NCBI GenBank assembly: GCA_965200315.1
Contig: OZ241362.1
Coordinates: 4,256,001 to 4,320,000, forward strand
Direction: 5' to 3'
Length of the DNA stretch: 64,000 nucleotides
Source: Candidatus Latescibacterota bacterium
Lineage (GTDB): Bacteria > Latescibacterota > UBA2968 > UBA8231
Shown here: piece by piece, positions 43,535 through 58,651 of the stretch
Position numbering within the stretch: the first letter of the stretch is position 1
How the letters are laid out: each line of letters begins with the position of its first letter
Notes under the pieces: generated by a model
Database searches by the model: none
What the model was told of the DNA's origin: nothing
What the model saw: only the letters and a program-made list of their open reading frames with translations
Translations under genes and position numbers: made by a program

Positions 43535-44449
43535 TCAGCTTGTGCCGTCTAGAGGCTGGGCACATCGGAGTGCGGTCTCGGTTATCTCTTGTTTTATCAC
43601 CCGGTCGTCGAAGAAGTACGCCATCCAGTTGACGAATGCGAGCCATAGGTCGTTAGTGGAAAAATCGTCTCCGGAGATTGTCTCAAGATAAGAGTGGGCA
43701 TCGGAGCGGGTGAGTGTCGTGTCTTCGGTCGCGTCGAGAAGGGCTTCAGCGATTGGTATGGCCGCGATCAGGGAACGGACCGCAGTTCGGAATTCATCTT
43801 CCTTGAGACCCGGCTGGAGATTGGAACTCGCCAAGTCAGTCAGCAGAATGCGGTCGGCAGCTTTTACGTATTCGCTCGGGGGTTGTGTGTAGAACTGATA
43901 TGCGTATTCGGGTCGTCGACTGATCGGAAACCAAGGAGCCTCAAAATCAACCGTTGATGCCGTTGAGGTAGAAAGACTGTCAGCCAAGCGACGAGCGGCT
44001 TGCGCCATGAGCCTTGTTGCTGGGCGTTTCGCTTGAGAGATTTCCTTAAGCGTCGCAGCAATTCCAGGATCGTCGATGGTCGTCTCAACGAGAACCTCGA
44101 TATTCCTGCCGCCTCCTTCCCCTAGTCCGGCAAGAGTCACGTTGGCCGAGCCAGCGAGACATCGTTCGCCGGCGATATAGAGCTTAGCATGTAGCCTGTC
44201 AACGAGGGAAATGGTGAAGTTGCCGCGTTTCTCAAGCATGTCCAAGATTTCCGGATCGGATACGCCCGCTGCAACTTCTTGGGGGAGCCATCGCGTGACA
44301 CAATGCAGATGTGCGTCCGTGGGAATTACATCGAGCAATGACCGTAGTGCATCGACCTTAATGAACGGTGCGACGACTGAAACTTCACCTACGACACCCT
44401 CGAAAAGGGCACGAATCCGTCCGCCTTGGGTGTCATTAGCTGCCGCCAT
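43535..44449 (-). CDS. PLD-family (HKD-type) nuclease-like protein
   Basis: APF, LHAKLYIAGE...GSANVT...NIE. Confidence 0.75.
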   Translation of the reverse strand: MAAANDTQGGRIRALFEGVVGEVSVVAPFIKVDALRSLLDVIPTDAHLHCVTRWLPQEVAAGVSDPEILDMLEKRGNFTISLVDRLHAKLYIAGERCLAGSANVTLAGLGEGGGRNIEVLVETTIDDPGIAATLKEISQAKRPATRLMAQAARRLADSLSTSTASTVDFEAPWFPISRRPEYAYQFYTQPPSEYVKAADRILLTDLASSNLQPGLKEDEFRTAVRSLIAAIPIAEALLDATEDTTLTRSDAHSYLETISGDDFSTNDLWLAFVNWMAYFFDDRVIKQEITETALRCAQPLDGTS

Positions 44450-44455
44450 GATTCC

Positions 44456-46393
44456 CTACACCAGATCCGTGGGAGCGATTGAGCCATCGTCTTCATCGAA
44501 GAACTCCTCCGCGTACTTTCCCCATTCCACACGCGCATCGCGGACCTTGCGCCGAGCGAGGTCGGTCTGTTCTTCCTCATAACGAGCCCACGAGTAAATG
44601 AGAATACGGAAGGCCGCGGCGGCTTTCTCAAGACGTTCCCGAACTTCATCTTCGGTCAATTTATCAACATCGGGGTGCATGATGTCGTAAAGGTGTGAGT
44701 ACACGGGATGGTTCGTGTTGAGCGCGACTTGAATTACGTTGGGCAGTGATTCAACATAAAAGAATGCCGCACTTTCTTGCGCCGATTGGATCCAACGCAC
44801 TCGATTCCCCGCCTCGATTGTTTCGGCCACTCGTTGAAGCGCATCGCTCTGATCGAGACGATGCGTCTCGACTAGAGATTCGACTTGCGTCTCCTTGTGT
44901 TCCTCTTCGGTCCCTGATTCACCGGCTCGATCGGACTCTCCTTGATGCCCCTCCACAATACGACGTTTTATTGCGGCCGTTGCCTTTGCATCAGCTTTCT
45001 GGTCTTCGTTGGGAACATGACGCGGACCTCGGGGCTGGATCTTCTCCTTAACGCGAGACCGCATTGCAGTAATAACATTTCTGATCTGTTTGTGAAGTTC
45101 CAAAAGATCTACACGATGATCACCATCCTCCTTCATCCGACGGCGAACATCACCGCTCGACTCTTCACCGGGTAGTGCTTCACGTCTCCAGTCATACTGT
45201 GCAAGCCGCTGGAAAGTCACCGTGCCCTGTTTATTGTTGGTAACGCCGAATACTTCATCGAGTGCCGTCGGAAAGTCGACTTCTACCGTCCACCAACGTT
45301 CGGTCGGATCGTTACCATTTACCCATGATCGGTCGATCTCGATCTCGCGATGCGCTCGTACCAGCGAGACACCCATATTATGATCGGCATGCTTCCCCCA
45401 CGGTGCGTGCCCGGCATCTCTTCCAATAAACTCTTCAGGCCAATTGGCTTCAGGGTCGGAAGAGTCGCGGACATGGGCACGAGCGTAGCTCGCTCGGACG
45501 TAAACCTGATACTGCTGATCTTTATAGCTCACGGGCACTGGGAAAGGGCTTGCATCGAGTTCCTTGAACATTGGACCGACTCCGAATTGTTCAGGGCATG
45601 AAGTACCGGTCATAAGATAGAGGGGATCATTCGGCCTTACTTCGATGATACCATCCTTCTGTACCTCACTCGTACCTTCGTTTTCTTGAATGGGTATACA
45701 TGTGATGGTTCGCCGGGGTCCAATGTCTTCAGTTCTTGGATCATCCGGACACAGTCTCTCCGATGGCTTCGCGAGAAAACGCCGGTATATCCGTCCAAGG
45801 AGGGTCTCGGTGTGCTTGAAAGTCGTCGATGCCTGCTTCCATTCAACTCGGTCGAGCTCGCTCCATACTACTAAAGTGCCGGAATCGCCTAAAGTGCGGC
45901 TCGCCTCGAGGTAAACTTTTGGGATGGGTTGCAACTTGGGTTCACGGATTTCACGGGCACCGCGCTCCACATCGTCGATGGAAAGCTTCGCGTGGAAGGC
46001 ATTCGTGGCTCCTGATTGCCATGACCAGACATCTACCTGTCTTGCCTGCGACATCGATGAATTAGGAAGTCCAAGGCCAAAACGGCCGATTCCCCGTCTC
46101 TGTTGGCGAGTCCCATGACCGTAACGGAGGCTTCCTCGGAGCGTGTTTTGGTCCATGCCCTCGCCGTTGTCGAGGACAGCCAATTCCTTGAGGGTAAATC
46201 TTCCGGTGTGGCTATCTTGCCGACTTACTCCAAATATCTCGATTGTTGTCGCTCCACTCTCTATCGAATTGTCGATAAGCTCTGCAAGCGCATGTGTGGT
46301 GGACTTGTACCCGCTGTCGCGCATTGCCTCGACCGTCATTCTGGTATCAACGATTGAGAACTCCAGTTGTCCATCGAATTCAGTCACTGCCAT
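44456..46393 (-). CDS. MORC/HSP90-like GHKL ATPase
   Basis: ALAELIDNS, DNGEGM, GIGRFGLGL, GT; FGVTNNKQ. Confidence 0.85.
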   Translation of the reverse strand: MAVTEFDGQLEFSIVDTRMTVEAMRDSGYKSTTHALAELIDNSIESGATTIEIFGVSRQDSHTGRFTLKELAVLDNGEGMDQNTLRGSLRYGHGTRQQRRGIGRFGLGLPNSSMSQARQVDVWSWQSGATNAFHAKLSIDDVERGAREIREPKLQPIPKVYLEASRTLGDSGTLVVWSELDRVEWKQASTTFKHTETLLGRIYRRFLAKPSERLCPDDPRTEDIGPRRTITCIPIQENEGTSEVQKDGIIEVRPNDPLYLMTGTSCPEQFGVGPMFKELDASPFPVPVSYKDQQYQVYVRASYARAHVRDSSDPEANWPEEFIGRDAGHAPWGKHADHNMGVSLVRAHREIEIDRSWVNGNDPTERWWTVEVDFPTALDEVFGVTNNKQGTVTFQRLAQYDWRREALPGEESSGDVRRRMKEDGDHRVDLLELHKQIRNVITAMRSRVKEKIQPRGPRHVPNEDQKADAKATAAIKRRIVEGHQGESDRAGESGTEEEHKETQVESLVETHRLDQSDALQRVAETIEAGNRVRWIQSAQESAAFFYVESLPNVIQVALNTNHPVYSHLYDIMHPDVDKLTEDEVRERLEKAAAAFRILIYSWARYEEEQTDLARRKVRDARVEWGKYAEEFFDEDDGSIAPTDLV

Positions 46394-47997
46394 ACGTCCT
46401 CCCAATTCAGAAATGCTGCCGCGACGTCACCGAATCCCGGCAGGCTTGAATCAACGACGGTTACGATTTCGCAGGCGTCCGTGCCACCTGCCTTTGGACC
46501 GCGGATCGCACGCCCGACCATCTGGCTGTATAGCACTAGGGACTTTGTCGGACGAGCAATGACTACCGCACTTGCCTTGGGTGCATCAAAACCAGTAGTC
46601 AACACACCGAAATTGACGAGGACCATCGGGATCTCGTCATCCGACTTGAAGGTACGGATGGCGTGGTCCCTCTCGCGCCCCGGCGTCAAACCGGTCACCG
46701 CCTTGCTTCGGATGTCGCGAGCGACGAGAATCGCCGTCAGGACTCGCGCATGTGCGACTGTGGCGGCGAAGACGAGCACACGCTGATGACCTGCGCCAAG
46801 CAGTTCCTCAATCGCGCCAAGTACTGCCGTCACATACTGTTCACTCATCGACAAGGTGGATACGATCTCTTCAGGGATGTCCAAAGCCCCTGAGATGCGA
46901 TTCAACTCGCTATCATTGATACTGAGGCCCGGTTTGGAAAAAAGCGTTTGGAAGGTAGGTCGGGCAAGAAAGCCGTTGTCTGTGAGATACTCAATCGGGT
47001 TATCACCGGGGACCTCGAGTGTGATCTTGTTTCTGGAAAAGAAGTCGGCGAGCTCACCGTCTTTGTCAATATCATCCCATGTTCGCCCTGGTGTGGCAGT
47101 AAGTCCCAAAAGGGCGCATCGGAAATCGAGGGTGAGATCGTTTGTGATCTGCCTGTAGGTTCTAGCAATGCTCTGGTGAGCTTCATCAAAGACCACTAGC
47201 CGGACCCGTGGGGAGAGTCGCACCGCCCAATCCGGGTCAGTTCGTGAGATTACAGACCAGCCTTTTGCCAGCCCGACGGCGAGGAATCCGTCGGAGAAGC
47301 TATCGAGTTCCGGCATTCTGTTGCCCCACATGGTTCCAATCTGTAGCGGTCTTGTGCCTAGATGTTTCCAAGCCTCCTTAAACGCCACCACCGCTTGCTC
47401 AAGCAGTTCTTTTCCTGATGCAAGCCAGACAACGACCGAGGGCTCATGGGTACGTAACGAATCCGCCACCACGTGCATAGCCGTGCGAGTTTTGCCCACC
47501 CCAGTAGGTAAGTGAAGAACCGCTCGGCGTTCATCGCAGGACAATAACGGTGTCAACTTCCGAACAGCCTTCCTCTGATGCTCGAACAAGCTGTATGCAG
47601 GGGTGATCGTAGCCGTTGGTGGCCCCGCCGGTGGCACGATCCGTTCTTCTACTAGGCCGAAGAAATCACGCAGCAGTCGCACTTCCGCCTCGGTCCAATC
47701 GCCTGCGTCAGTGGGGTGAATGCTTCGCCCGACGCGGCTTTCCAACTCGGGTCGCTTCTGTTCGGGGACCAAGCTCAGGACAAGCCTCCGTCCCTTCGCC
47801 TCTCCGATCAATATGTCGAAATCGACAAGTGTTCGAGCGACCCGCCGCAGATCGTCACCGGCAATGCTTCCACCAAAGATCGCATCCAGGACCGAAAGGA
47901 CATTGGAGTCTAAGAACCGCCGGATGTCCTGATCCGACAGCAATTCTAGGAATCGAGCGAAAGTCAAACCGGGGCCATCAAACATCGTTGATCTCAA
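46384..47997 (-). CDS. SF2 DEAD/DEAH-box (ResIII-like) helicase
   Basis: LPTGVGKT, DEAH, TATP, TTGFDAP, QMVGRAIRG. Confidence 0.9.
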   Translation of the reverse strand: MRSTMFDGPGLTFARFLELLSDQDIRRFLDSNVLSVLDAIFGGSIAGDDLRRVARTLVDFDILIGEAKGRRLVLSLVPEQKRPELESRVGRSIHPTDAGDWTEAEVRLLRDFFGLVEERIVPPAGPPTATITPAYSLFEHQRKAVRKLTPLLSCDERRAVLHLPTGVGKTRTAMHVVADSLRTHEPSVVVWLASGKELLEQAVVAFKEAWKHLGTRPLQIGTMWGNRMPELDSFSDGFLAVGLAKGWSVISRTDPDWAVRLSPRVRLVVFDEAHQSIARTYRQITNDLTLDFRCALLGLTATPGRTWDDIDKDGELADFFSRNKITLEVPGDNPIEYLTDNGFLARPTFQTLFSKPGLSINDSELNRISGALDIPEEIVSTLSMSEQYVTAVLGAIEELLGAGHQRVLVFAATVAHARVLTAILVARDIRSKAVTGLTPGRERDHAIRTFKSDDEIPMVLVNFGVLTTGFDAPKASAVVIARPTKSLVLYSQMVGRAIRGPKAGGTDACEIVTVVDSSLPGFGDVAAAFLNWEDVWQ

Positions 47998-49307
47998 GGA
48001 TGATCATCATCCGACATGGGTTGAGTACTTGAATCCGCAAAGTAGTGGGGAAGACTGACATTCTGGAGTTCCCGATTCAGTAGTCCTGCTAGTTCTTTTC
48101 TTACATTTTTTCTGGATGTCTTGAATGGAGCCCGAGTTAGATCGCCTCCGAGTGCGTTGAAAAGTAATTGGCGAGCAACTTTCTGATTCTCCTTTGTCGT
48201 CAACATACGTTTGTTCGTATTATCCCAAAGCAACCCCATCCAAGGGGCCTCAGCAAGGTTGGTCGGAGTATGTCCAACCGCCTCGATCGCCTCCGCGAGA
48301 CTCATGTCCGCACTTGAACGCAAATCGGCGACGACGCGTCCAATTAACATCAGTCCGACAGGTCGAAACAGCAAATTTCCACCATTAGAACTCCTGTACT
48401 CACCAGCAACGTTGTCTGCCGGAGAACTGTCAAGAAGTTCCTTGAGCGGAATAAAATTGTTGCATAGAGCGTCCCAAAACTTGCTTGCCGTTTGATAAAA
48501 TATCTCGACCTTTGACTCCGGCGGTCGCCAACGTTTATAGTCTCTCCAGCCTCGCTGACCGTTGCTTAGCACTATGTCCACGACGTCATACACTGTGACG
48601 ATAGTCGTCAGATTCGTCCGATCAGTGGGACTTATAGATTTTGACATGCCCATATCCACTTTGTCCACGAGGAGAGGGTGTTCTTCCAATAGCCTTCGCG
48701 TAATGATTGCGATGATGTCGTCTTCATCAAGTGCAATAATGTCACGTTTACGAACGGGTTTAGCGTAGCGATTTAGGGTCGAAAAAAGACGCCTCGTGCG
48801 CTGAAAACCATCTGGATCATGGCCGCGCCTACTTGCGATAACTCCTTGGATGAAGATCGTACATACTTTTTCATTCTTTAGAGCATTGTTCTTACCGATA
48901 GCCCCCATGATGCCTTTCACACGATGTTGTCCATCAATTGCGAACAGAGTCTCATCGCCGCTAAGTTCTAGGAGACCTATAGTCCCTTCAATTTTCTCCG
49001 GTACCGCGGCAAAATTTCGCCCCTTCACGGATATCTCGTGCCAATTAGGATGACCTCCATAGGTTCCGACCACAATCGCGTTGAATAGTCTCTGTTCTTG
49101 GCCAAGTAAGTAATTAGTGATTTTCACGGAATTGTCTGTGAGGCCCCTCTGCAACCACTCCTTCAAAGATTCGCTTGAATGGATATCGTCAACAACGCTA
49201 ACACGAGTTGCAATATCCTCCATGCTCATGAAGGATATATAATACACCCAATCGCCCATTGTTGCCCGAAGGGCGGGTAGGAAAAGTCGCTCATGAATAT
49301 CAACCAT
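47994..49307 (-). CDS. DGQHR-domain (DndB-like) protein
   Basis: LQR, AIDGQHR, F..LN..AKP. Confidence 0.85.
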   Translation of the reverse strand: MVDIHERLFLPALRATMGDWVYYISFMSMEDIATRVSVVDDIHSSESLKEWLQRGLTDNSVKITNYLLGQEQRLFNAIVVGTYGGHPNWHEISVKGRNFAAVPEKIEGTIGLLELSGDETLFAIDGQHRVKGIMGAIGKNNALKNEKVCTIFIQGVIASRRGHDPDGFQRTRRLFSTLNRYAKPVRKRDIIALDEDDIIAIITRRLLEEHPLLVDKVDMGMSKSISPTDRTNLTTIVTVYDVVDIVLSNGQRGWRDYKRWRPPESKVEIFYQTASKFWDALCNNFIPLKELLDSSPADNVAGEYRSSNGGNLLFRPVGLMLIGRVVADLRSSADMSLAEAIEAVGHTPTNLAEAPWMGLLWDNTNKRMLTTKENQKVARQLLFNALGGDLTRAPFKTSRKNVRKELAGLLNRELQNVSLPHYFADSSTQPMSDDDHP

Positions 49308-49771
49308 CAGAACGCTCCTTGTGCACGTTGCACTTCTCCGGTGAATCTTGTATTACAAGGAGGAACGAAAGCATTGATCAATTCCTCCTCTATATTGTCA
49401 AGTATTTCTTTATCGACCTTAGAATAAAAAAACATTATGAAGCCACCATACATTTCGAGGAGCCGTACGACTTTGGGACGTCTGACCCGTTCTCTGGTCA
49501 AATAGTCACCAAAGCGCTTATGGAGGTTCTTCGCTTGGCCGACGTACATGAGATAAGAGCAACCTAAGTGCCCCGCAATCCTAGGTTGGATCACTAAGGA
49601 ATAAACTCCGGTAGTATGAGGCACCTTGGACTTGCTATTGTCATTTAGTACGACGTTGTGCCATTTTAAGCGTACGTTACAAGTTTTCCATTGTTTTGGC
49701 CAAAGGCAAATAGACCAAATGTGCTTTTTGTATTCGTCCTGAGATGCTACAATATCCGCAGGTGAGGCCAT
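49307..49771 (-). CDS. GIY-YIG-like nuclease
   Basis: GVY...YVGQAKNLHKRF..Y...E..LI...PPCN. Confidence 0.75.
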   Translation of the reverse strand: MASPADIVASQDEYKKHIWSICLWPKQWKTCNVRLKWHNVVLNDNSKSKVPHTTGVYSLVIQPRIAGHLGCSYLMYVGQAKNLHKRFGDYLTRERVRRPKVVRLLEMYGGFIMFFYSKVDKEILDNIEEELINAFVPPCNTRFTGEVQRAQGAF

Positions 49772-49834
49772 TAAGTCTTTTCCGGCGTTGAACTTATCAA
49801 TCTCTGGCGGTTCATTTCCTCGGGTCTTCCCGCA

Positions 49835-50683
49835 CTACAGAGCACACACCGTGCAGGGCGTGGTGTCGTCATCCTCGTCGAGGGCTTCGGAGAGTGCTTC
49901 GATCAGCGGGATGTTTGCCCGGGTCTTACTGGCGCGGGACACCGCTGCCTCGTGGCGTTTGAGAATCTCGTCTCGGCGGGACCGAAGCTCTGGGAGGGTT
50001 TCCCTTCCTGACCATGTGTACTGGCGACCACGCATAGCTTGATTTCCGAAATCGGCGTCACCGTCAATGCCAGCGTCCTGCAGCACCTTCCTTTCAATGG
50101 CGACCGCTCGCTCGAATAACTCAGGGTGGCGTTCGGCCAACCCGATCCATTCCGCCTTGCGTTGATAGAAGCAGAAGTAGCAGCCTGACCTTGTTCTCCA
50201 CTCATAGTACGCTGGGAGGCCTACGCCGGCATCCGCGAGAATCCTCATCACGCCATCGTGGTCAATTCCATCTTCGATGAACGGAAATCGGGTTTGGATA
50301 TTAGGCTTGGTGGAGATGTATCCCTTGCGGTTCGACTCATCAGCGCGAATCGCAACGTAGGAAAGTGCCGGAGCGTCACCGATCCATTCCTCGATCGGCT
50401 TAATCTTCATGTTCTTGGTGCACCATCGCATCTGAGGAGAGGGCAGCGTCCCACGGAACACCTCAAACCAGTGGTCAAAGCCACGTTGAGCGTTGAGACG
50501 GGCAATCGACTTGCCGAGGATCACTTCAAGACGGGTGAGGTACTCATAGGTTTCGGGAAGCTCGGCACCGGTGTCGCAGAAAAAGTACTCCATCTCGGGC
50601 ACCTTGTCCCGAAGGTAGATGGCGAGTGCACTGGAGTCTTTGCCGCCTGAGATGCCGCAGATGTGGCGGATGATTTCAGCCAT
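49835..50683 (-). CDS. sspD: PAPS reductase family protein, SspD/DndC-like
   Basis: SGGKDS PP-loop, RWCT, RSGCYFC, terminal CTVC; operon context. Confidence 0.75.
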   Translation of the reverse strand: MAEIIRHICGISGGKDSSALAIYLRDKVPEMEYFFCDTGAELPETYEYLTRLEVILGKSIARLNAQRGFDHWFEVFRGTLPSPQMRWCTKNMKIKPIEEWIGDAPALSYVAIRADESNRKGYISTKPNIQTRFPFIEDGIDHDGVMRILADAGVGLPAYYEWRTRSGCYFCFYQRKAEWIGLAERHPELFERAVAIERKVLQDAGIDGDADFGNQAMRGRQYTWSGRETLPELRSRRDEILKRHEAAVSRASKTRANIPLIEALSEALDEDDDTTPCTVCAL

Positions 50684-53600
50684 GCTGTGCTTTCCTTTCG
50701 ATTAAATTGACTCCCTCTCTATCGTCGCTACCGGTCAGTTCGGACAGCAGCCGTTCGCTGAGAAGGGCAAGCAATGCCTTATGAGCGCGATGCGGTGAGC
50801 CAATGCTCTGGGTCAGTTCTTTAAGGACGCTATCGAGGGCTTCGTCGGCATATTGGCGTTGATTCTGGTCAATATCGACCAAGCCGACATGTTCGTAGCC
50901 GTCTGGGCGGGTGATAGTCACGCGGAACGCGTTGAACGGGCCACCGCCATCAGCCCGGTGGTCCGCGTGGAGGGCGACGAGGCGCTGAAACGCGGCAATC
51001 TGCTGCGGAAGCTCATGGCGGAATCGTAGCAGATCGTCGTCTGTCCACTCCGCCGGTGCCTTCTTGGCCACCACTGTGGCGATGGCCTCGATCCAGTCAG
51101 TGTCGGTATCCACGCCGTTGTTGGCCAAGGTGAGGACGAACGCCCGAACCGTAGGATTAAGGACTTCGTTCTCAAGGGCAGCAGCTTGGCCAGTGATTGC
51201 TAGGCGATTAGTCTCTGCACTTGTCTCAAGGAGAAAGTCGAAGAGATCGTTGAGGAGTTGATCGTAACATCCGGCGAGTTCGTTTAGTACAGCACCGATT
51301 TTCCCTGCGTAAGCGTCGGCCTTCTCATAGGTTTTCTTGTCGGCAGGGATGGGCTGAAATCCGAGGGCCTTCGGCAGGCTATCGAAGAGCAGTTCGTCTG
51401 GTTCTACCGCAGCTATAAGGGTATCCCGCGCTTTCAGCGTGGTGGACGTGAGGTTGCTGGTAAGTAGAGTATAGTTGTCGAGAGTCCTCATCTGAGAAAC
51501 TAGATGACCGACAATGGATAGGACATTTGTGACCCGGTGCTTGCGGAACCCCGGCCTCACTCCGAGGTGTGCGGCAATAGCATCGATGACTTGCCGACGG
51601 GCACCAGTGGTGTTGGCGAAGTGCTTGATGTCGAAGTGACTAGGGTTGCGAACCATTCGTTCCGACAAGTCGGGAGTAAGAAGCGGCTTGAAGGTACCGT
51701 GCTCATAAATGGCAATCTCGTCTCTGAAAGCAAGCAGTGCCGCCGTGCCAAATACCGGGATGACTGCGGCCTTCATTCCGACCGGAGGTGAGAGCAGTGC
51801 GGCATAGACATCGCGGAGGTTGATGCGGCGGATTTTGGCTCGTTTGAATTCGTCGTTGAGGATTTCCCAAGCCGGCTGTAGAGAGTGATCGGTAGGCCTG
51901 CGAAAAACCATGGTGTCGTTTCGGACATCGCGGGCGTGGAGCCCGGTCCGTTCCAAGAACGCCCGATACATGGCCACTTCCGGCCCATAGCCATCAAACC
52001 CGAGTCCCGGACTGGTACCACGCTCGATCATGGCCTCGAGCAAGAGACGCCGGGCTTTGGAACCTTGGGTGGTGGGATTGGTACGGTTGAGCATTTCATT
52101 GCAAATCGTCGGCGTGGATGGGTACGCAAGATCGGCCGCCGCTGACAGCGCGGTGCTACCCCGACCGGTGGGCAGTGGGGTTTCACCGGAGGCGTCGAGC
52201 AAGATCCATCGACATGAGTCAGTGCTGAACGTGGTGCTAATGGCGTGTTCAAGTGCGACTCGCGCCTGCGCTAGCCGCTCTCCCAACTCACGGCGGGCTA
52301 CCCAATCAGTTTCGACGACCGGATGCTCCAGAACGGCGGTGACGGCCGCAACTTCCCGAGCGGCCCGGTCGAGTTCGGTCACTTCGTTCGGAATTGCGGC
52401 CACAACCGGTTTGACTGTAGCCGCTGACTGAACCAAGCTCGGTACTGTCCGGTCTGAGCTGATAACGAGCAGAACCTCGCCATCATACGGGGAGAATGCG
52501 TCGAGTGGTTCGACATGCTCACTACCGCCGGCATAGCGCCTAGCAAATACTCGGAGTACGTCGTGTTCTGCACTGTGTCGCGCCGCTACTACGGGTGGAG
52601 GCTGCTCCATGGCCGCTAGGATCTCGACGAGTGGTTGCCTTTGCCCTCGTTCATGGGCCGCGTCAAGGAGATGGCGGATGTCGACATCGGTTCCTTGCCA
52701 GACCCGGTACTCGTCGGCAAAGTCCCGATAGGTGATAACACCGGCTTTCTCAAGGTCAACCAGATCGTCATTCACGTCAGGATCGATGAGGGCGAGTATT
52801 TGACGCGATGCTCGAATCGTTCCAGTCGTCGCCACTAGATTGAGTAGGGCGATGGACTTGACTAGTCGCACCTGTCGTTTTGAGAGACCGTGAATGTCGC
52901 GGATTCGGGTGGCGATCTCAGTCCATCGACTCGACTGGCCGGCAGATAGGACTGCTAATGCACCTCTATCGACAAAATAGTCGAAGATAGCCTCAAGGCC
53001 CAAAGAAGGAAGGGAGCCGCGGCCCGGTAGCTTAGTGGTTGCAAGGAAGGACGCTGCGCTCGCCGGATCAGAGCTAGTTAGGAATGAGAACAACGTCCGT
53101 TCGTGCTGTCCATACCGGTTGCATAGCTCGGGTAATACCATCGCAGCTATGGGGTGCAGTGGGTAGCAAGCAGTTATGACCTCTGGGTCTGCAAGGTCCA
53201 CGATACCAAGTGAACGCATCGTCTTGGCGTGGCCTTGAGCCCAATGAGCAATCCGGTCCCGCAGTTTATCGTCGCCAACCTCAAACACAGTCCCAATTAG
53301 GGATCGTGCTTGGTTGGCCGATTCGACATAAGAGATGTTCTCAAAGCGGCCTTGCACCTTGGCCCATTCACGGTGCTGCGGACCGTCGGTCCCTGTTAGA
53401 TAGTCCTCAAATGACAGATGCTGCAAAGTCAGCATGAAGATGGGTAATCCTGAGCCTTGGCCCGCCTCCGCGATCTGTTGTAACAGATAGGGATCGGCGT
53501 CGTTGCCACCCCGGATCGCTTCGAGGTTCTTGCCAAACTCATCAATGACTAGTAGCAGCGGCGCATCCTCTGCCAAGCACCGAGCGATCTCGACTATCGC

Positions 53601-54146
53601 AGCCGGGGACGGCCCGGTGCGGCGGGGATCATCTGTCGCTGCATCTTCAAGAGCCCCTCTCAGTGTCTTGGCCGCTTGGAACCTGCTGGTGGGAGGAATT
53701 TTGCCGTAGCTACGGAGTACAGCCGCGTGGAGTGCCCGGAGTACGGTGTGGCTGAGTGGTTCACGGTTCGCGGTAACTAGACCACGATAGAATCCCATGT
53801 CTTGGGTCTGGTGGCGTTGGTGAGTCTGTCGGACCAACGCGCCCACCGTCGAAGAAACCTCGTCAATAAGATCCCAAGCGACCGCTCGTGTCGGCGTGGC
53901 TGGACCTAGGGCGGCGTCGAGCAACAAAGCGAGCGACGATTTACCCGAGCCGTAGGGTCCAATCAGTGACCATGCTCCTCCTGATGGTCCCGTCACAGCA
54001 GTCGCGGTTATGCGCTCCACCACATCAAGAGTGCGCATCGTAACGATGTATCCGTTGAGCGGCTCGAATCGATTGACGTCACGTTCGAGGTTTGCTGAGC
54101 GAGCGAAGCGGCCGCGGACGGAGAAATAGTCTGCAAGGACGGCCAT
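50676..54146 (-). CDS. sspC: Large P-loop ATPase, SspC-like (BrxC-related)
   Basis: RSANLERD, GPYGSGKS, IDEFGK, EWAKVQGRF, YPLHP, QHERTLFSFL. Confidence 0.72.
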   Translation of the reverse strand: MAVLADYFSVRGRFARSANLERDVNRFEPLNGYIVTMRTLDVVERITATAVTGPSGGAWSLIGPYGSGKSSLALLLDAALGPATPTRAVAWDLIDEVSSTVGALVRQTHQRHQTQDMGFYRGLVTANREPLSHTVLRALHAAVLRSYGKIPPTSRFQAAKTLRGALEDAATDDPRRTGPSPAAIVEIARCLAEDAPLLLVIDEFGKNLEAIRGGNDADPYLLQQIAEAGQGSGLPIFMLTLQHLSFEDYLTGTDGPQHREWAKVQGRFENISYVESANQARSLIGTVFEVGDDKLRDRIAHWAQGHAKTMRSLGIVDLADPEVITACYPLHPIAAMVLPELCNRYGQHERTLFSFLTSSDPASAASFLATTKLPGRGSLPSLGLEAIFDYFVDRGALAVLSAGQSSRWTEIATRIRDIHGLSKRQVRLVKSIALLNLVATTGTIRASRQILALIDPDVNDDLVDLEKAGVITYRDFADEYRVWQGTDVDIRHLLDAAHERGQRQPLVEILAAMEQPPPVVAARHSAEHDVLRVFARRYAGGSEHVEPLDAFSPYDGEVLLVISSDRTVPSLVQSAATVKPVVAAIPNEVTELDRAAREVAAVTAVLEHPVVETDWVARRELGERLAQARVALEHAISTTFSTDSCRWILLDASGETPLPTGRGSTALSAAADLAYPSTPTICNEMLNRTNPTTQGSKARRLLLEAMIERGTSPGLGFDGYGPEVAMYRAFLERTGLHARDVRNDTMVFRRPTDHSLQPAWEILNDEFKRAKIRRINLRDVYAALLSPPVGMKAAVIPVFGTAALLAFRDEIAIYEHGTFKPLLTPDLSERMVRNPSHFDIKHFANTTGARRQVIDAIAAHLGVRPGFRKHRVTNVLSIVGHLVSQMRTLDNYTLLTSNLTSTTLKARDTLIAAVEPDELLFDSLPKALGFQPIPADKKTYEKADAYAGKIGAVLNELAGCYDQLLNDLFDFLLETSAETNRLAITGQAAALENEVLNPTVRAFVLTLANNGVDTDTDWIEAIATVVAKKAPAEWTDDDLLRFRHELPQQIAAFQRLVALHADHRADGGGPFNAFRVTITRPDGYEHVGLVDIDQNQRQYADEALDSVLKELTQSIGSPHRAHKALLALLSERLLSELTGSDDREGVNLIERKAQHG

Positions 54147-55141
54147 CACTGACTCCCCACCAACGGTGCTGCTGTCGGCCTTTTACTCTTATGATCGACT
54201 CGAATGTCGGATGTCGGAAATCCGTAGTAATGGTTGAGGACTTCGGTGGCGACCTCGCTGGGATCTCTTGACCATGAAAGCTGGGATGCTCCTGTAGTGC
54301 TAACTAGCCTGAGCGCGTCTGTTTCATCAATGGTCGGTTCGATGGCTGCGAGAATTTCACCTTCGGTAAGTTTGAAAGCCTTTCCGGGGGCACCTAACTC
54401 ATAAGCAAGGCGACTGAGCATGATCGTGTTCCCCCCGGTGTTGGTACGGGTGATATAGTCTAATACAGAGTAGGTCAATATGGCCGATGGCAGAGTAGGC
54501 TTCGCCCCCAGTGTGAACCGGTATTGACCCGCTGCGGACGAGCGTCCAATCAGATTCAGTTCCCGGAGAGGACAATCCAAGAGGTCGTCAATCCCACTAC
54601 TCCCCGACCTTTCCGCCGGTGCATAGGTGCGCAACAGAACGCTGATGTCCTTCCTGACGGAGGACGGATGAGGCTTAGGCCACTCGGCAATGGCTTCGAG
54701 TTGCGTGGTGATCACCATCTCGAGGTCGTCGTCAGTGAACTCAACGGCGTGAAATTCGTTGAAGGCGAGCCACCACACCGGCAGCCGGGAGGGAGGCGCC
54801 AACAACAACCAATGCAGCAGCCATAGAGTCCCCGGGTCCTCCATATACCGATCCCATCCAGAGTCTCCGAAGAGGGTCTCGCCCAAGATAGTCGGGACCA
54901 GATCGGGAGTCCGGCGGTTGGGAAACTGTGGATCCACTTCGATCAGCTTGGACGCGAGTCCCCAAAAGCGAATCGCTCGGACCATATTCTTGCCAACCCC
55001 AATCTGTACCGGGGCGTCCTCTTGGATGAAGATGCGAGGGGCTTCGGCTACGAAGGTATATGCCTTCCGAAACCATCCGTATCGGGGGTGGAACGTCTCA
55101 TGCCGAGCAAAGATCGGCTCGGCCGCTTCGACTATGCGCAT
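54146..55141 (-). CDS. sspB: DUF4007 family protein, SspB-like
   Basis: FARHETFHPRYGW, GVGKNMVRAIRFW, DRYMEDPGTLWLLHW. Confidence 0.78.
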   Translation of the reverse strand: MRIVEAAEPIFARHETFHPRYGWFRKAYTFVAEAPRIFIQEDAPVQIGVGKNMVRAIRFWGLASKLIEVDPQFPNRRTPDLVPTILGETLFGDSGWDRYMEDPGTLWLLHWLLLAPPSRLPVWWLAFNEFHAVEFTDDDLEMVITTQLEAIAEWPKPHPSSVRKDISVLLRTYAPAERSGSSGIDDLLDCPLRELNLIGRSSAAGQYRFTLGAKPTLPSAILTYSVLDYITRTNTGGNTIMLSRLAYELGAPGKAFKLTEGEILAAIEPTIDETDALRLVSTTGASQLSWSRDPSEVATEVLNHYYGFPTSDIRVDHKSKRPTAAPLVGSQ

Positions 55142-56308
55142 CTATACCCCTTCCTTTTCCTTGGTCATAGCTCGAACGTACTCAACGGCTGCTATAGTTC
55201 TCTCTACAGCGAGCTCAATGTCCTCCTGTGTGGTGAAACGGCCCAAGCTGAACCTAATCGACTCGAACGCTGCATCACGTGGGATACCCATGGCGAGGAG
55301 AACCTCAGAGGGTTCGATCGAGCCGAAGTTGCAAGCGCTACCCATCGACACCGCAACAGGGTCCATGTTGGTTATGACCGCCTCCGCATCGGCACTCTCG
55401 AAGCGAACATTGGCCGTATTCGGGAGTCTTCGGGTGGTGTCTCCGATGTCGTAAACGCCGGAGAGTCCCGATTTCAAGGCAGAGATCAGGTGCTCGCGGA
55501 GCGTCGCGACCCGTGCTGACTCAAGGATGCGTTCCTTAGTAGCGATGTCGGCGGCAGCCCCGAACCCGAGGATGCCAGCGACATTCAACGAACCCGACCG
55601 CAGCCCTCGTTCGTGCCCGCCGCCGTGGATGATCGGGCGCAATCGTTTCAGGCTATGGCGGGTTCCGACGAGAGCCCCGACACCGGTCGGGCCACAGATC
55701 TTGTGGCTACTTATCGACACGAAATCGGCCCCAACCTGATCGATGTCGAATAGCAGCCGGCCCACCAACTGCGTGGCGTCACAGTGGAACAATGCGCCGG
55801 CTGCATGCACCTGCTCGGAAATCTCCTCTAACGGGTTCAGCACACCGGTCTCGCTGTTTGCCGCCATTACTGACACTAGCAGCATGTCAGTGCCGACAAG
55901 AGCTTCCATTGCATGAGGATCGACGAATCCTCCGTTAGTCACGGGTATAATATCCAGATTTGCCAATTTCTGATCTCTGAGCCACCGTGCGGTCTGACAG
56001 ACTGAAGCATGCTCGACTGCGGAGATCGCGATTCTCGACCGGTCGGTTGGCGCGTCTTCCACCGCCCCTCGTAGTGCCAGATTGTTAGCTTCGGTTGCAC
56101 CCGACGTGAACACCACATTCGATGGGTGGCCGCCGACCATGGCCGCGATGTGCTCACGTGCTTCATCAACTGCGGCGGCTTGGCGGCGGCCAAAGCGGTG
56201 CATAGAGGCTGCATTCCCGACTCTCTCAGTAAGGGCTGGTACCATGACCTCAGCGACACGAGGGTCAAGTGGGGTTGAGCCGTTGTAGTCGAGGTAAACC
56301 TCTCTCAC
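55142..56308 (-). CDS. Cysteine desulfurase (IscS/DndA/SspA-like)
   Basis: YLDYNGSTP, FTSGATE, SSHK (PLP Lys), GSAC; GTG 56308 after AAGGAAGG. Confidence 0.9.
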   Translation of the reverse strand: MREVYLDYNGSTPLDPRVAEVMVPALTERVGNAASMHRFGRRQAAAVDEAREHIAAMVGGHPSNVVFTSGATEANNLALRGAVEDAPTDRSRIAISAVEHASVCQTARWLRDQKLANLDIIPVTNGGFVDPHAMEALVGTDMLLVSVMAANSETGVLNPLEEISEQVHAAGALFHCDATQLVGRLLFDIDQVGADFVSISSHKICGPTGVGALVGTRHSLKRLRPIIHGGGHERGLRSGSLNVAGILGFGAAADIATKERILESARVATLREHLISALKSGLSGVYDIGDTTRRLPNTANVRFESADAEAVITNMDPVAVSMGSACNFGSIEPSEVLLAMGIPRDAAFESIRFSLGRFTTQEDIELAVERTIAAVEYVRAMTKEKEGV

Positions 56309-56385
56309 GACGCCTTCCTTTCCGTTTTGTGCTTGGAACGCGAGCCAACTCCCCTTGGCTACCGCCAAAGTATCAAGACCCAGCT

Positions 56386-56694
56386 TTATAATGTAAAGCT
56401 AATATACAGACTACTGATAATGCGCCGCCCTATCTCCGACGGTGCATTTCGAGCCAAAGGGTCATGGCTAGCGGCTAAAGGCGACCACACATAGCGGTTG
56501 AGTACCCGGTGATAGGTCTGAAAGGTCGGCTGCTGACTCAAGCCCAACACCGCCAACACCGCACGGACCGTGCGTTTACCCGGTTCTAACAGGGGCCCAA
56601 CCAACAGTAGCTGATCCTGTGGCCAAACGCGGCGAGAAAAAACAGGGGCAAACGGCGACAAAATCTTTATTATCTTGTTGGGCAGAGGGCGCAT
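56386..56694 (-). mobile_element. IS701-family transposase N-terminal remnant
   Basis: FAPVFSRRVW...PGKRTV...YHRVLNRYVWS; truncated. Confidence 0.65.
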
Positions 56695-56780
56695 CGGTTC
56701 CTTCTAGGCGGTCGATGCTTGGATACCATCAACAGTACGGACCATACCGGCCTCCTGCTACATCTTTGGATAAAGTCGGG

Positions 56781-56808
56781 CTCAGAGTCAAGGTCGGGAT
56801 GCTCGGCC
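56781..56808 (+). repeat. 28-bp direct repeat (27/28) of DUF433 gene internal sequence at 58457-58484
   Basis: CTCAGA(G/T)TCAAGGTCGGGATGCTCGGCC on both sides of the DUF445 gene. Confidence 0.8.
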
Positions 56809-56827
56809 TTTAGGACGCAGCAGCCGA

Positions 56828-58363
56828 TCAATGTAAGCTGGCGATAAAGGCATTGAGAAACGGCAAGAGCACACCAACCAATCCCCCCAGTACCGCCCCC
56901 AGCAAATTGATATAGCGCAGTTGGTCGCTGATGATACTTTTGATCAGTTGCTCCACTCGCAACAGATCGAACTTCATAATGTTGGCGTACACCATGCTTT
57001 GAATGTCGAATCGTTCAATCAGTGCGGGTACTTGCGTCTCCATGATTTTTGTCGCTTTGTCCTGCGCCCACTGCACTAGTGCTTTCTCGTCATCGCGTCT
57101 CAGGCCGGTCCACTCCCGCAACGGTGTGCGACTGTGCTGTAGGCGTTCCCGCAAGAAAGTGCTCAACTGTACACTCCAAGGTTCAATTTTGTCGCTGGGC
57201 AGTTGCAAAGCCTTTGACAGGCGCTGGCGCATGGTGCGCTTCACCTTCTTTGGGAGCATCTCGTCGAGTTGACGCTTGTGGTGCTGGTGGTACTGATGGC
57301 GCAAAAAGCTCCCTAGTGCGTCTTGGGCCTCGGTGCTCGAAATCCAAGTCGCGGCAATAGAGCCGACGCGCTGGGCCAAAACATGGCGATGCTCTCCCAC
57401 CACTTCTGCCACCGGCTTGCGCAACAAGTCGTTGACGCTGTCGATTAGCTGGTTAGCGAACTTCTCGCGCACTTCCTCGCTGTGCAAAAACTCTCGGGCC
57501 AACTGGGGAATGCGCTGGCGCAATGCTTGGGTAATCTCTTCCCGAAAAAAGTGTAATCCCAAGCTGGCAATCAGGCTCTTGAGCCAATTCGCTTGGCCGG
57601 AGTACGCTTCAAGAGCTTTCAAAATTCGCTCGACTAGAGACTCTACATTTTCCGGGTCTCTCAGCCAGCGGGCTATGCGCACGAGGATTTCCGGGATTTC
57701 GCGCTGCAAACGGTCATGTAATACGTCGCGCAATTCCGCCGGGACGATTTTCTCTAGCGGCGTATCCGATCCGAGATAGCCCTCCAACCGCTCCTGCAGG
57801 ATGCGAGTCAAGTGCTCTCGCGTTTCCCGCTTGGCCAGTACGCCGCTGGCCATGTCGATGAATTCGTCGAGCTGCTTTGCCGATAGCACCTGTCCGACTT
57901 GCAGTGCGCCCAAGCGCGCTTCGAGGGCGTCTAAAAGCCACCGCTTCGACTCCAGTCCGGCCTTGCTTTCGCTCCAGTCGGCGATCCATTCGAGCAGCCG
58001 GCGCGTTGCTTTGTCTAGGCCAGCGCCGCGCCAGTCCGGTGGCAGTTGGGCAAAGCCAGAGGCCAAGCTGGTACTTAACAACCGATTTATCTGAGCGGCA
58101 ACCCAGCAATGCAAACTCTTCTGAAGAGTCGCGTTCTGTAGCTGCTCTAACAAGTAGTCTCTGGCCAACAAATCGGTCCCCACAACCTTGGAGATATTGC
58201 TGGCTAGTTTCTCCTTATTGCGCGGAATAACCCCTTGCCAGCCTAGGCTGTACCAGCGCGGTCGCAGCGGACGGAACAGGGACTTGATGGCCATCCAATT
58301 GGTGCCAAAACCGATGAGTGCCCCCAGCGCAGCACTGGCGACGATTTGGATTATAGTGATCAA
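56828..58363 (-). CDS. DUF445 family membrane-anchored protein
   Basis: IGFGTNWMAIKSLFRP, GVIP; C-terminal LRYINLLGAVLGGLVG. Confidence 0.85.
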   Translation of the reverse strand: MITIIQIVASAALGALIGFGTNWMAIKSLFRPLRPRWYSLGWQGVIPRNKEKLASNISKVVGTDLLARDYLLEQLQNATLQKSLHCWVAAQINRLLSTSLASGFAQLPPDWRGAGLDKATRRLLEWIADWSESKAGLESKRWLLDALEARLGALQVGQVLSAKQLDEFIDMASGVLAKRETREHLTRILQERLEGYLGSDTPLEKIVPAELRDVLHDRLQREIPEILVRIARWLRDPENVESLVERILKALEAYSGQANWLKSLIASLGLHFFREEITQALRQRIPQLAREFLHSEEVREKFANQLIDSVNDLLRKPVAEVVGEHRHVLAQRVGSIAATWISSTEAQDALGSFLRHQYHQHHKRQLDEMLPKKVKRTMRQRLSKALQLPSDKIEPWSVQLSTFLRERLQHSRTPLREWTGLRRDDEKALVQWAQDKATKIMETQVPALIERFDIQSMVYANIMKFDLLRVEQLIKSIISDQLRYINLLGAVLGGLVGVLLPFLNAFIASLH

Positions 58364-58393
58364 TGGTGGAGATAGGAGCGTCGAGCCAAAGGA

Positions 58394-58618
58394 TCATGCA
58401 GCGAGAACTGGATGATTCAGCCGTTCACTGGCAAAGCGCAGACAGGCGCGAATATCCTCAGATTCAAGGTCGGGATGCTCGGCCAAAATCTGTTTAGTAG
58501 TCAAGTCGGCGGCGAGCAAATCCAGTACATCCGTGACGCGAATCCGCATCCCCCGAATACAAGGACGTCCCCCACATTGCTTGGGATTTACCGTGATGCG
58601 ATCGGCTAGAATAGCCAT
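58394..58618 (-). CDS. DUF433 family protein (orphan antitoxin-like)
   Basis: RITVNP..CGGRPCIRGMRIRV...EDIRACL. Confidence 0.88.
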   Translation of the reverse strand: MAILADRITVNPKQCGGRPCIRGMRIRVTDVLDLLAADLTTKQILAEHPDLESEDIRACLRFASERLNHPVLAA

Positions 58619-58651
58619 AGCGGTCCTTTCTTACACAGTTCTATTTCAAGT

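Follow-up and report, generated by a model that had tools for sequence, protein, structure and literature searches.

A predicted phosphorothioation operon of a Candidatus Latescibacterota bacterium with a GIY-YIG/DGQHR gene pair and a helicase-MORC-PLD trio as a candidate restriction arm

Introduction

Single-strand phosphorothioate (PT) modification of DNA is written by SspABCD and may be accompanied by SspFGH, which damages DNA devoid of PT, or by SspE, a PT-stimulated NTPase and nickase, according to PMC8092258 and PMC9646914. The restriction partners of PT-based defence known so far are DndFGH, PbeABCD, DndI, SspE and SspFGH, and passages of PMC8092258, published in 2021, report that 83.9% of 2,678 sspBCD clusters contain neither sspE nor sspFGH and anticipate further restriction partners. 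Here we describe a locus from a Candidatus Latescibacterota bacterium, located in a window of 64,000 nucleotides (assembly GCA_965200315.1, contig OZ241362.1, positions 4,256,001 to 4,320,000 of the forward strand), in which a complete sspABCD set is followed by two genes for a GIY-YIG nuclease and a DGQHR protein (the pair) and by three genes for a superfamily 2 (SF2) helicase, a MORC-like GHKL ATPase and a PLD nuclease (the trio), the latter being a probable new restriction arm.

SauUSI, an ATP-dependent type IV enzyme, is a single polypeptide with no GHKL partner which cuts modified DNA. Prokaryotic operons combining a MORC GHKL ATPase, a Rad25-like SF2 helicase and a nuclease were predicted by Iyer, Abhiman and Aravind in 2008, and in passages of that work (PMC2292703), which do not mention ssp, named later, the prokaryotic MORCs are predicted to take part in restriction systems together with SF2 helicases and nucleases, forming DNA loops from the recognition site to the cleavage site. 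PbeA is described in passages of PMC10853773 as an HKD nuclease fused to an SF2 helicase. Passages of PMC10164549 place DndB, SspE and DpdB among the ParB-fold NTPases, DpdB being a DNA-stimulated ATPase needed for modification. Both PT-based restriction-modification and, as a prediction, MORC-helicase-nuclease operons are already known, but we could not find any description of such a trio coupled to sspABCD or of an Ssp-linked GIY-YIG/DGQHR pair.

Results

Organization of the operon

The block at window positions 43535-56368 is formed by nine co-oriented, mostly overlapping open reading frames (ORFs) of the minus strand, listed below in the direction of transcription after the promoter-like site upstream of sspA.

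56369..56397, minus strand: promoter-like site TTTACA-17-GATACT upstream of sspA (consensus scan)
55142..56308, minus strand: sspA, pyridoxal phosphate (PLP)-dependent cysteine desulfurase (longest ORF to TTG 56368; likely start GTG 56308)
54146..55141, minus strand: sspB, DUF4007 DNA-binding subunit (DUF4007 and PADLOC SspB)
50676..54149, minus strand: sspC, BrxC-like P-loop ATPase of 1157 amino acids (PADLOC SspC)
49835..50683, minus strand: sspD, ATP pyrophosphatase of the PAPS-reductase family (PAPS_reduct and PADLOC SspD)
49307..49771, minus strand: stand-alone GIY-YIG nuclease of 154 amino acids, first gene of the pair (family profile and predicted fold)
47994..49307, minus strand: DGQHR protein of 437 amino acids, DndB-like, ParB/Srx superfamily, second gene of the pair (DndB/DGQHR domain)
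46384..47997, minus strand: SF2 (RadD/Rad25-like) DEAH helicase, first gene of the trio (ResIII and Helicase_C)
44456..46393, minus strand: MORC-like GHKL ATPase, second gene of the trio (longest ORF to TTG 46405; HATPase_c_3)
43535..44449, minus strand: Nuc-like single-HKD PLD nuclease, third gene of the trio (fold and invariant residues)

The nine genes and their junctions, as given in the initial annotation of this DNA, were all recovered, and the nine-gene observation is real. The sspA and sspB genes abut (55142/55141), sspB and sspC overlap at 54146-54149 and sspC and sspD by 8 bp (50676-50683); the GIY-YIG and DGQHR genes have one base in common (49307), the DGQHR and helicase genes overlap by 4 bp (47994-47997), and the helicase gene, which ends at 46384, overlaps the MORC gene from either of its candidate starts, ATG 46393 or TTG 46405. 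The MORC and PLD genes are separated by 6 bp (44450-44455), and the sole sizeable gap in the block is that of 63 bp between sspD and the GIY-YIG gene. A Shine-Dalgarno-like GGAAAGGAAGG precedes GTG 56308 of sspA, which makes this start, also the one proposed initially, more plausible than that of the longest ORF at 56368, and the MORC start at ATG 46393 fits the length of 644-646 residues of most close homologues (75-94% identity). Promoter-like sites are not enriched in the region (6 found, 7.8 expected from shuffled sequence), and only its position favours the site upstream of sspA. Likewise, in the region scan no terminator was evident 3' of the PLD gene and terminator counts were not above the shuffled expectation. 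A tRNA scan of the whole window and an Rfam scan of window positions 42-62 kb returned nothing. The GC content is 0.48-0.58 across the block and 0.59-0.63 on its low-coordinate side, at 37-43 kb.

The modification genes

The catalytic motifs are intact in all genes of the block, and domain calls at or above the curated cut-offs were obtained for Aminotran_5, DUF4007, PAPS_reduct, DndB/DGQHR, ResIII with Helicase_C, and HATPase_c_3, while the GIY-YIG and PLD proteins fall below the Pfam cut-offs and were confirmed by profile searches and predicted folds. The assignment of the first four genes as SspABCD, made initially, holds, since PADLOC recognizes the complete set. SspA matches Aminotran_5 (4e-72) and PADLOC SspA (3.2e-127) and carries the PLP-lysine motif SSHK at residues 220-223 of the 408-residue ORF. 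SspB matches DUF4007 over the full profile length (4.3e-86; 289 bits for a cut-off of 27) and PADLOC SspB (1.8e-104). In SspC the PADLOC SspC model scores 1024.7 bits over profile positions 2-1104 of 1104, together with a BrxC match (1.6e-93) and a Walker A motif, GPYGSGKS, at residues 64-71, and SspD matches PAPS_reduct (4.6e-10; 40.2 bits for a cut-off of 22.5) and PADLOC SspD (2.2e-109), with the PP-loop SGGKDS at residues 12-17.

The initial annotation had also noted that none of the usual partners was visible, and this was borne out: the PADLOC models for SspE, SspF, SspG, SspH, DndFGH, PglZ and BrxL found no match among the nine proteins at E<=0.01, nor did any of them contain a GmrSD domain by Pfam. 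The SspE, SspF, SspG and SspH models do work on other loci of our survey (numbered L001 onwards), in which SspE was matched at 3.7e-246 (L015) and SspF, SspG and SspH at 1e-207, 6e-204 and 0 (L045 and L018).

The helicase-MORC-PLD trio

The helicase matches ResIII (1.3e-18) and Helicase_C (1.2e-14), and among PDB sequences RadD (2.6e-24), as well as SauUSI (C-terminal half, 5.1e-9), Hef and Rad25/XPB. Its motifs I, II, III and VI are intact (PTGVGKT 164-170, DEAH 271-274, TATP 300-303 and QMVGRAIR 492-499). The second protein is assigned as MORC-like on the basis of HATPase_c_3 (8e-21; 74.9 bits for a cut-off of 25), of its best match among PDB sequences, human MORC2 (1.2e-6), and of the N, G1 and G2 motifs of the Bergerat fold (ELIDNSI 42-48, DNGEG 79-83 and GRFGLG 107-112); its match to MzaB is weak, 67 for a cut-off of 850. 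MORC proteins with 75-94% identity to that of the window are spread over more than 100 protein clusters formed at 90% identity.

The PLD protein has no Pfam match, and its PADLOC matches are weak (ZacB, 8e-10; DrmC, 5.7e-6; DpdK). Nevertheless, it belongs to the PLD/HKD superfamily by its HxK...GSxN motif and its fold: H87, K89, S101, N103, N116 and E118 are invariant in 11 sequences, and the AlphaFold2 model (predicted local distance difference test, pLDDT, 82.3) retrieves with Foldseek SauUSI as the best match (3e-6), together with NgoAVII R, BfiI, NucT and Zucchini, down to 7e-4. At position K+5 the protein has Gly where the classical motif has Asp. The nuclease domain spans approximately residues 20-150 and the C-terminal domain is helical; searches of the ESM Atlas with this C-terminal domain and with the N-terminal 132 residues of the helicase gave best values of 0.79 and 0.77, respectively, both within the chance range. 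In clusters of 50% identity the PLD family has 4,725 representatives at E<=1e-3, 2,399 at E<=1e-10 and 888 at E<=1e-30. Almost all of the best 150 relatives have 295-340 residues, and no MORC-PLD fusion was present among the six longest of them. Two relatives have other architectures: P0126 (396 residues), in which the first 80 positions of DUF4007 precede the PLD part and which may be a gene-call chimera, and P0258 (886 residues), which has an N-terminal Prim-Pol domain.

The GIY-YIG/DGQHR pair

The GIY-YIG protein scores just under both Pfam cut-offs (19.5 and 21.5 for cut-offs of 22.6 and 22.4, respectively), but its motifs, catalytic Arg and Glu residues and alpha/beta fold place it in the GIY-YIG superfamily. 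In fact, its family profile finds the GIY-YIG domain of UvrC in the PDB (E = 9.5e-4), and the AlphaFold2 model (pLDDT 89.7) retrieves with Foldseek the N-terminal domain of UvrC (E = 8.6e-5, template modelling score 0.70), as well as T4 EndoII and I-TevI. Across 43 sequences there is no variation at G55, Y57, Y76, R86, Y90 and R98, and conservation of at least 90% at G78 and E128.

The DGQHR protein matches Pfam DndB (2.1e-26) and the DGQHR domain model TIGR03187 (101.9 bits for a cut-off of 58.85), whereas with the DndB equivalog TIGR03233 it reaches only 52.4 bits for a cut-off of 328. The DGQHR motif lies at residues 125-129, with D125, G126, Q127 and R129 invariant and H128 conserved in at least 90% of 31 sequences. 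Its profile found no match among PDB sequences. Since an hhalign comparison of the DGQHR family with SspE, for which the alignment held only 3 sequences, found no homology (probability 0.6%), the link of the DGQHR protein to the ParB superfamily rests on published work. A complex prediction for the two proteins of the pair gave a score of 0.15 (mark, 0.32) and was counted neither way. One fusion of the two was found, P0271 (598 residues), in a single metagenome contig; its N-terminus is 26% identical to the GIY-YIG protein of the window and its DGQHR domain 35% identical. The PPxN end conserved in the GIY-YIG family is absent from this protein, which may therefore stem from a frameshift at the 1-base overlap of the two genes and not be a natural fusion.

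Loci related by the DGQHR gene

The DGQHR protein has at least 120 close relatives (49-100% identity), and the 31-sequence alignment yielded 433 relatives among the scanned species-representative genomes (a collection of 185,579 species). The closest 80 of these 433 were surveyed with up to 10 kb on each side, so that the counts describe this subfamily only; gene presence was scored by tblastn with several query variants, at a coverage of at least 50% and E<1e-8. The GIY-YIG gene is present in 72 of the 80 loci and immediately precedes the best DGQHR match in 65. At least one of sspB, sspC or sspD is found in 60, and 9 of the remaining 20 loci are shorter than 13 kb and may be truncated. In 27 of the 80 the sspD gene is directly upstream of the GIY-YIG gene. 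The initial statement that DGQHR proteins belong to Dnd systems therefore misfits this subfamily, which is mainly Ssp-linked.

The further company of the pair in the 80 loci varies: SspF, SspG and SspH together in 6, SspE in 3, PbeA and PbeC (plus one small and one DndE-sized protein) in 11, a divergent MORC that has no accompanying helicase in 6, and the complete helicase-MORC-PLD trio in 12. In 19 of the 60 ssp-bearing loci, 12 of them with full flanks, the pair is accompanied by none of the six effector modules counted. The single five-gene effector block of the initial annotation consequently falls into two parts, a pair that goes with any effector and a trio restricted to 12 of the 80 loci. 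Both sspC and sspD are present in 10 of these 12, the exceptions being L004, a truncated contig of 7.8 kb, and L071, a Pyrinomonadaceae metagenome-assembled genome (MAG) whose trio and pair have as neighbours, in place of ssp genes, a cysteine desulfurase gene, dndC, a dndD-like gene and another DGQHR (DndB-like) gene that is shorter. It follows that the accessory modules may also work with double-strand PT of the Dnd type. The trio follows the pair in seven loci (L001, L003, L005, L006, L038, L066 and L076), with the common gene order sspB-C-D-GIY-DGQHR-helicase-MORC-PLD, and is placed between sspD and the pair in L029, L046 and L047.

Other genes also adjoin the pair. A protein of 817 residues without a PADLOC match does so in 14 of the 80 loci (L002:11793-14246 and 13 others); from its sub-threshold HATPase_c_3 match (1.7e-4) and the consensus motifs E..NSIDA, DDGEGQ and GKYNMGGSG it seems to represent a further GHKL ATPase that is linked to Ssp and stands alone. 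In L009, L010 and L012 the neighbour is a five-gene HerA/BrxC-like set of 281, 178, approximately 1350 (weak BrxC_BrxD), 362 and 393 residues (HerA/DUF87, mad8-like), which may be another effector cassette. In four Poribacteria MAGs (L026, L028, L030 and L032) tandem PhyH-like dioxygenases, an ankyrin-repeat protein and a gene of the aminoglycoside 3-N-acetyltransferase family are encoded 3' of the pair, and are probably unrelated neighbours typical of sponge symbionts.

Plasmid loci related by the MORC gene

In order to avoid circularity, a second survey was anchored on the MORC protein in plasmids. It gave 58 matching records, 12 of them at a coverage of at least 80% and 33-38% identity; 11 of these 12 were surveyed, H7 being set aside as the same species as H6, and the other 46 matches fell outside the survey. 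The helicase gene precedes the MORC gene in all 11 loci, the third gene of the trio encodes a PLD protein in 9, sspD lies within the fetched 10 kb in 9, and ssp genes or a cysteine desulfurase gene are found beside the trio in all 11. On the Agrobacterium plasmid the trio is followed by SspF-, SspG- and SspH-like genes, with sspABCD just beyond, and on that of Cyanobacterium HL-69, for which the gene table is incomplete, only the cysteine desulfurase was found. The initial annotation had allowed for the downstream genes never occurring near sspBCD elsewhere; they do so in many unrelated genomes and plasmids.

In 10 of the 11 plasmid loci tblastn found neither gene of the pair at a query coverage of at least 50%. 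The plasmids of Pannonibacter, Pleomorphomonas, Mesorhizobium and Aminobacter carry sspABCD and the trio without the pair, and that of Hymenobacter has neither pair gene by tblastn and a 176-residue ORF with a weak GIY-YIG match. All nine genes are present on pROLI83 of Roseobacter litoralis, where the trio is convergent with the rest. In two cyanobacterial plasmids (L082:4848-7154 and L086:6007-8343) a protein of 768-778 residues annotated as "DndB", of which only the N-terminal third matches Pfam DndB (1.8e-7), is encoded between a small hypothetical gene and the helicase gene. In Agrobacterium (L083:9028-10107) and Aminobacter (L088:11798-12877) the PLD protein is replaced by one of 359 residues which matches the PADLOC model 'Effector endonuclease' at approximately 1e-10. 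Because these two loci carry an endonuclease-like protein instead of PLD, the third position of the trio can be regarded as a nuclease slot.

Coupling at the level of the operon is seen where a modification gene follows the nuclease gene. In L038, a cyanobacterial MAG, the order is sspB-C-D-GIY-YIG-DGQHR-helicase-MORC-PLD-sspA, and the ATG of sspA overlaps the PLD stop codon by 4 bp. The cysteine desulfurase gene lies 33 bp after the PLD gene on the plasmid of Trichormus variabilis, and 3' of it, with toxin-antitoxin genes in between, on those of Geminocystis and Cyanobacterium HL-69. A chance neighbourhood does not easily explain a modification gene that comes after the nuclease within one transcription unit.

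Modularity and mobility

The block (43538-56465) aligns with L001 by blastn at 90.7% nucleotide identity over 12,932 bp, colinear and between different flanks, and the same nine-gene order is found in L003 (72.4% over 12,774 bp) and L005 (70.2% over 12,863 bp), which carry different phylum labels. Since the whole block is colinear with these three loci, its arrangement is more than a matter of chance. The identity with L001 ends at the PLD stop codon, and on the other side it resumes at window positions 58381-58633 (253 bp), so that the stretch 56466-58380 is a 1.9-kb insertion relative to L001.

In the 19 trio-bearing loci the rank correlations of pairwise identity, which are descriptive and based on non-independent pairs, are high within modules (SspB-SspC 0.84, SspC-SspD 0.64, GIY-YIG-DGQHR 0.74, helicase-MORC 0.55 and MORC-PLD 0.47) and low between them (SspC-MORC 0.21 and GIY-YIG-MORC 0.15). 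These values are compatible with three cassettes that would be exchanged separately. A co-inheritance of the trio with the SspCD lineage had been considered and was dropped, the SspC-MORC correlation being 0.21 in the wider comparison.

Two features lie on the sspA side of the block. A 102-residue DDE_5 transposase fragment and a 511-residue DUF445 protein are encoded at 56386-58363 on the minus strand, mostly inside the insertion. Beyond them, at 58652-60847 on the minus strand and in the stretch of the window with the lowest GC content (0.46), is the gene for a 731-residue protein with an N-terminal HTH_3 domain and a GTPase domain of the dynamin family. It matches PADLOC LeoBC (Eleos) weakly (6.2e-9) and is possibly another defence gene of this island.

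Comparison with described systems

With SspABCD-SspE the locus shares the modification module, all four Ssp proteins matching PADLOC models. According to passages of PMC10164549 and PMC10853773, SspE has an N-terminal NTPase domain of the ParB-fold superfamily, to which the DGQHR protein of the window also belongs. However, SspE is a DUF262/DUF1524 protein, and at E<=0.01 the block holds no match to the SspE model; were the pair SspE-like, NTPase and nuclease would be on separate proteins and the nuclease would be GIY-YIG instead of HNH-like. SspFGH and the trio are both multi-protein, ATP-using arms 3' of sspBCD, and SspFGH occupies the same slot in 6 of the 80 related loci and stands beside the trio on the Agrobacterium plasmid. 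They differ in composition: SspF contains a Walker A motif and SspH resembles FtsK, as given in passages of PMC8092258, whereas the arm of the window consists of an SF2 helicase, a GHKL ATPase and a PLD protein.

The adjacency of GHKL ATPase, helicase and nuclease is that of the MORC operons described in passages of PMC2292703, where HKD nucleases are one option. In those operons the partners are DNA methylases, and the HKD domain is not the separate protein it is here; in the window the partner is a set of phosphorothioation genes, and Pfam found no methylase domain in the nine proteins of the block. SauUSI (PDB 7clg), the best structural match of the PLD protein and also a sequence match of the helicase, resembles the trio in being a machine of PLD and SF2 helicase, but the machinery of the window is distributed over three proteins linked to a host modification system. 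PbeABCD/CxC-ABC is linked to Dnd, and Pbe occupies the same slot in 11 of the 80 loci; the helicase of the window matches the PbeA model at 1.7e-19 only over profile positions 248-435 of 672, and PbeB, PbeC and PbeD have no PADLOC match in the block, which therefore is not a PbeABCD system.

Likewise, passages of PMC10164549 describe Dpd as a system in which DpdB (an ATPase of the ParB fold), helicases and DpdK (a small PLD protein) are joined to a DNA-modification module, as in the window, but DpdK and DpdF score 15.7 and 17.9 for cut-offs of 100 and 550, respectively, there is no DpdA/TGT, and the chemistry is another one. For Dpd, DISARM, Azaca and Mza alike, only weak single-domain matches were found and no other components. 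The DGQHR protein shares with DndB a domain above the cut-off, yet its equivalog score is far below, it is partnered with a GIY-YIG nuclease, and its neighbours are mostly ssp and not dnd genes. The block is not a Dnd system: the DndC model matches only weakly, on SspD (best 2.4e-06), and DndD and DndE have no match.

A literature search covering openly accessible papers, outside of supplementary tables, did not turn up either module described as a partner of Ssp, and neither appears in that role in the passages of PMC8092258, PMC10853773, PMC12839542 and PMC12914056. PADLOC-DB 2.0.0 and NCBIfam 20.0 contain no specific model for either. Whether the downstream genes match an already described system, as the initial annotation had put it, can thus be answered in the negative for the literature, PADLOC and NCBIfam families searched.

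Discussion

The results lead us to favour, with rather more confidence than doubt, the interpretation of the locus as a horizontally mobile PT-based restriction-modification operon of three modules, in which the trio is a new restriction arm. From the reading initially proposed this retains SspABCD with unmatched downstream genes and discards the five genes as one effector block. By homology, SspABCD would mark the host DNA with PT: SspA, the cysteine desulfurase, would supply the sulfur, SspD, a PP-loop ATP pyrophosphatase, would provide the activation chemistry, SspB, through DUF4007, would read the target site, and SspC, the BrxC-like ATPase, would drive the process. Based on its anatomy and gene linkage, we hypothesize that the trio forms an ATP-dependent restriction complex in which the SF2 helicase would translocate on DNA, the MORC-like GHKL ATPase, as a dimer, would clamp or loop DNA and gate or license the nuclease, and the single-HKD PLD protein, presumably a dimer, would nick or cleave DNA without the PT marks of the host, PT on the host DNA preventing self-attack. 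Such a complex would parallel SauUSI and the MORC-helicase-nuclease operons predicted in 2008, with PT in place of methylation as the self mark. The pair, a separate Ssp companion found in most of the DGQHR-anchored loci, is most likely a ParB-fold NTPase that works with a small nickase. It may combine PT sensing with DNA nicking, as an SspE-like activity divided between two proteins, or it may govern the amount of PT in the manner of DndB or DpdB, and we consider the split sensor-effector and the governor of PT level about equally probable.

Several observations weigh against this interpretation. The data show gene content, intact motifs, folds and linkage, whereas PT synthesis, defence and the dependence of the trio on PT are inferences, and no PT-reading domain was identified in any protein of the trio. 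The free shuffling of the modules is as expected of neighbours in a defence island as it is of partners, and in L071 the trio adjoins dnd and not ssp genes. The nearest structural analogue, SauUSI, is modification-dependent, and by analogy the trio could attack modified phage DNA independently of PT. The 19 ssp-bearing loci with the pair and none of the counted effector modules may mean that the pair is the real partner and the trio an add-on. The hhalign comparison, with its three SspE sequences, did not relate the DGQHR family to SspE, and the surveys covered a part of all occurrences, the closest 80 of 433 DGQHR relatives and 11 plasmids.

If the trio were an autonomous defence system which merely shares an island with Ssp, be it modification-dependent or modification-independent, PT would have no role in its targeting. 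The type IV character of SauUSI, the low correlations of identity between modules, the variable place and strand of the trio relative to sspBCD, its dnd neighbours in L071 and the defence-like LeoBC-related gene (6e-9) nearby in the window would all suit such a system. We nevertheless consider it unlikely: ssp genes, or in one case a cysteine desulfurase gene alone, adjoin the trio in 11/11 MORC-anchored plasmid loci and ssp genes do so in 10/12 DGQHR-anchored genome loci, translation of sspA is coupled to that of the PLD gene in L038, a cysteine desulfurase gene lies 3' of the PLD gene on the Trichormus, Geminocystis and Cyanobacterium HL-69 plasmids, and no methylase or other modification gene is associated with the trio. 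An alternative that we take seriously, while doubting that it is correct, is that SspABCD has its true restriction or sensor partner in the pair, a split SspE-like NTPase and nickase, and that the trio is an optional additive layer, as SspFGH is to SspE. The GIY-YIG gene in 72/80 loci, directly downstream of sspD in 27, its conserved catalytic residues, the 19 loci described above and the fusion P0271 argue for it; in addition, passages of PMC10164549 state that the NTPase of SspE needs a DGQQR motif of the same superfamily, and passages of PMC8092258 that SspE and SspFGH are additive. On the other hand, four plasmids (Pannonibacter, Pleomorphomonas, Mesorhizobium and Aminobacter) have sspABCD and the trio without the pair, and that of Hymenobacter lacks the pair genes by tblastn, its weak GIY-YIG match notwithstanding; hhalign found no DGQHR-SspE homology with its three SspE sequences, the sole fusion is missing the final part of its GIY-YIG domain and may result from a frameshift, and the named relative, DndB, is a regulator and not an effector.

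The framing of the initial annotation, in which all five downstream genes would form one obligate five-component effector complex, draws on their contiguous and overlapping arrangement in the window, L001, L003 and L005 and on the gene order shared by seven loci. It is very improbable, given that the trio occurs in just 12/80 DGQHR-anchored loci and stands between sspD and the pair in three of them (L029, L046 and L047), is convergent with the pair on pROLI83, and shows within-module correlations different from those between modules; moreover, 10/11 plasmid loci lack the pair genes at a coverage of at least 50%, even though two of these 10 have a long DndB-annotated gene beside the trio. We hold it to be hardly probable either that the locus does no more than place an epigenetic PT mark, which would serve gene regulation or redox protection, with the downstream genes acting in repair or regulation. 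Many sspBCD clusters do lack known restriction partners (passages of PMC8092258), and DndB regulates the PT level (cited in passages of PMC10164549 and PMC12839542), but the locus encodes three nuclease/ATPase classes typical of restriction systems with intact active sites, the same slot holds SspE, SspFGH or Pbe in other loci, and the block is mobile, with a GC content atypical for its surroundings.

A more far-reaching proposal can be made only tentatively: Ssp systems might have an architecture not recognized before, in which the conserved pair is a common PT-sensing hub into which the interchangeable cassettes SspE, SspFGH, Pbe, the 817-residue GHKL protein or the trio are plugged, and the trio might be a new PT-guided, MORC-gated restriction machine accounting for part of the ~84% of sspBCD clusters that have until now been taken for orphans.

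The trio and the pair are two candidate partners for the sspBCD clusters in which no known one is found. Both are widespread, the trio as judged by the 888 PLD representatives at E<=1e-30 (clusters of 50% identity) and the pair by the 433 DGQHR relatives among the species-representative genomes scanned. Since both modules occur on plasmids of cultured bacteria that are not pathogens, such as Trichormus variabilis ATCC 29413, Roseobacter litoralis (pROLI83), Pannonibacter, Mesorhizobium and Aminobacter, they are directly testable. If the proposed role of the trio is correct, the bacterial MORC ATPases would gain a defined epigenetic mark to read, and the system would bear on the way in which GHKL/MORC proteins link marks on DNA to DNA transactions.

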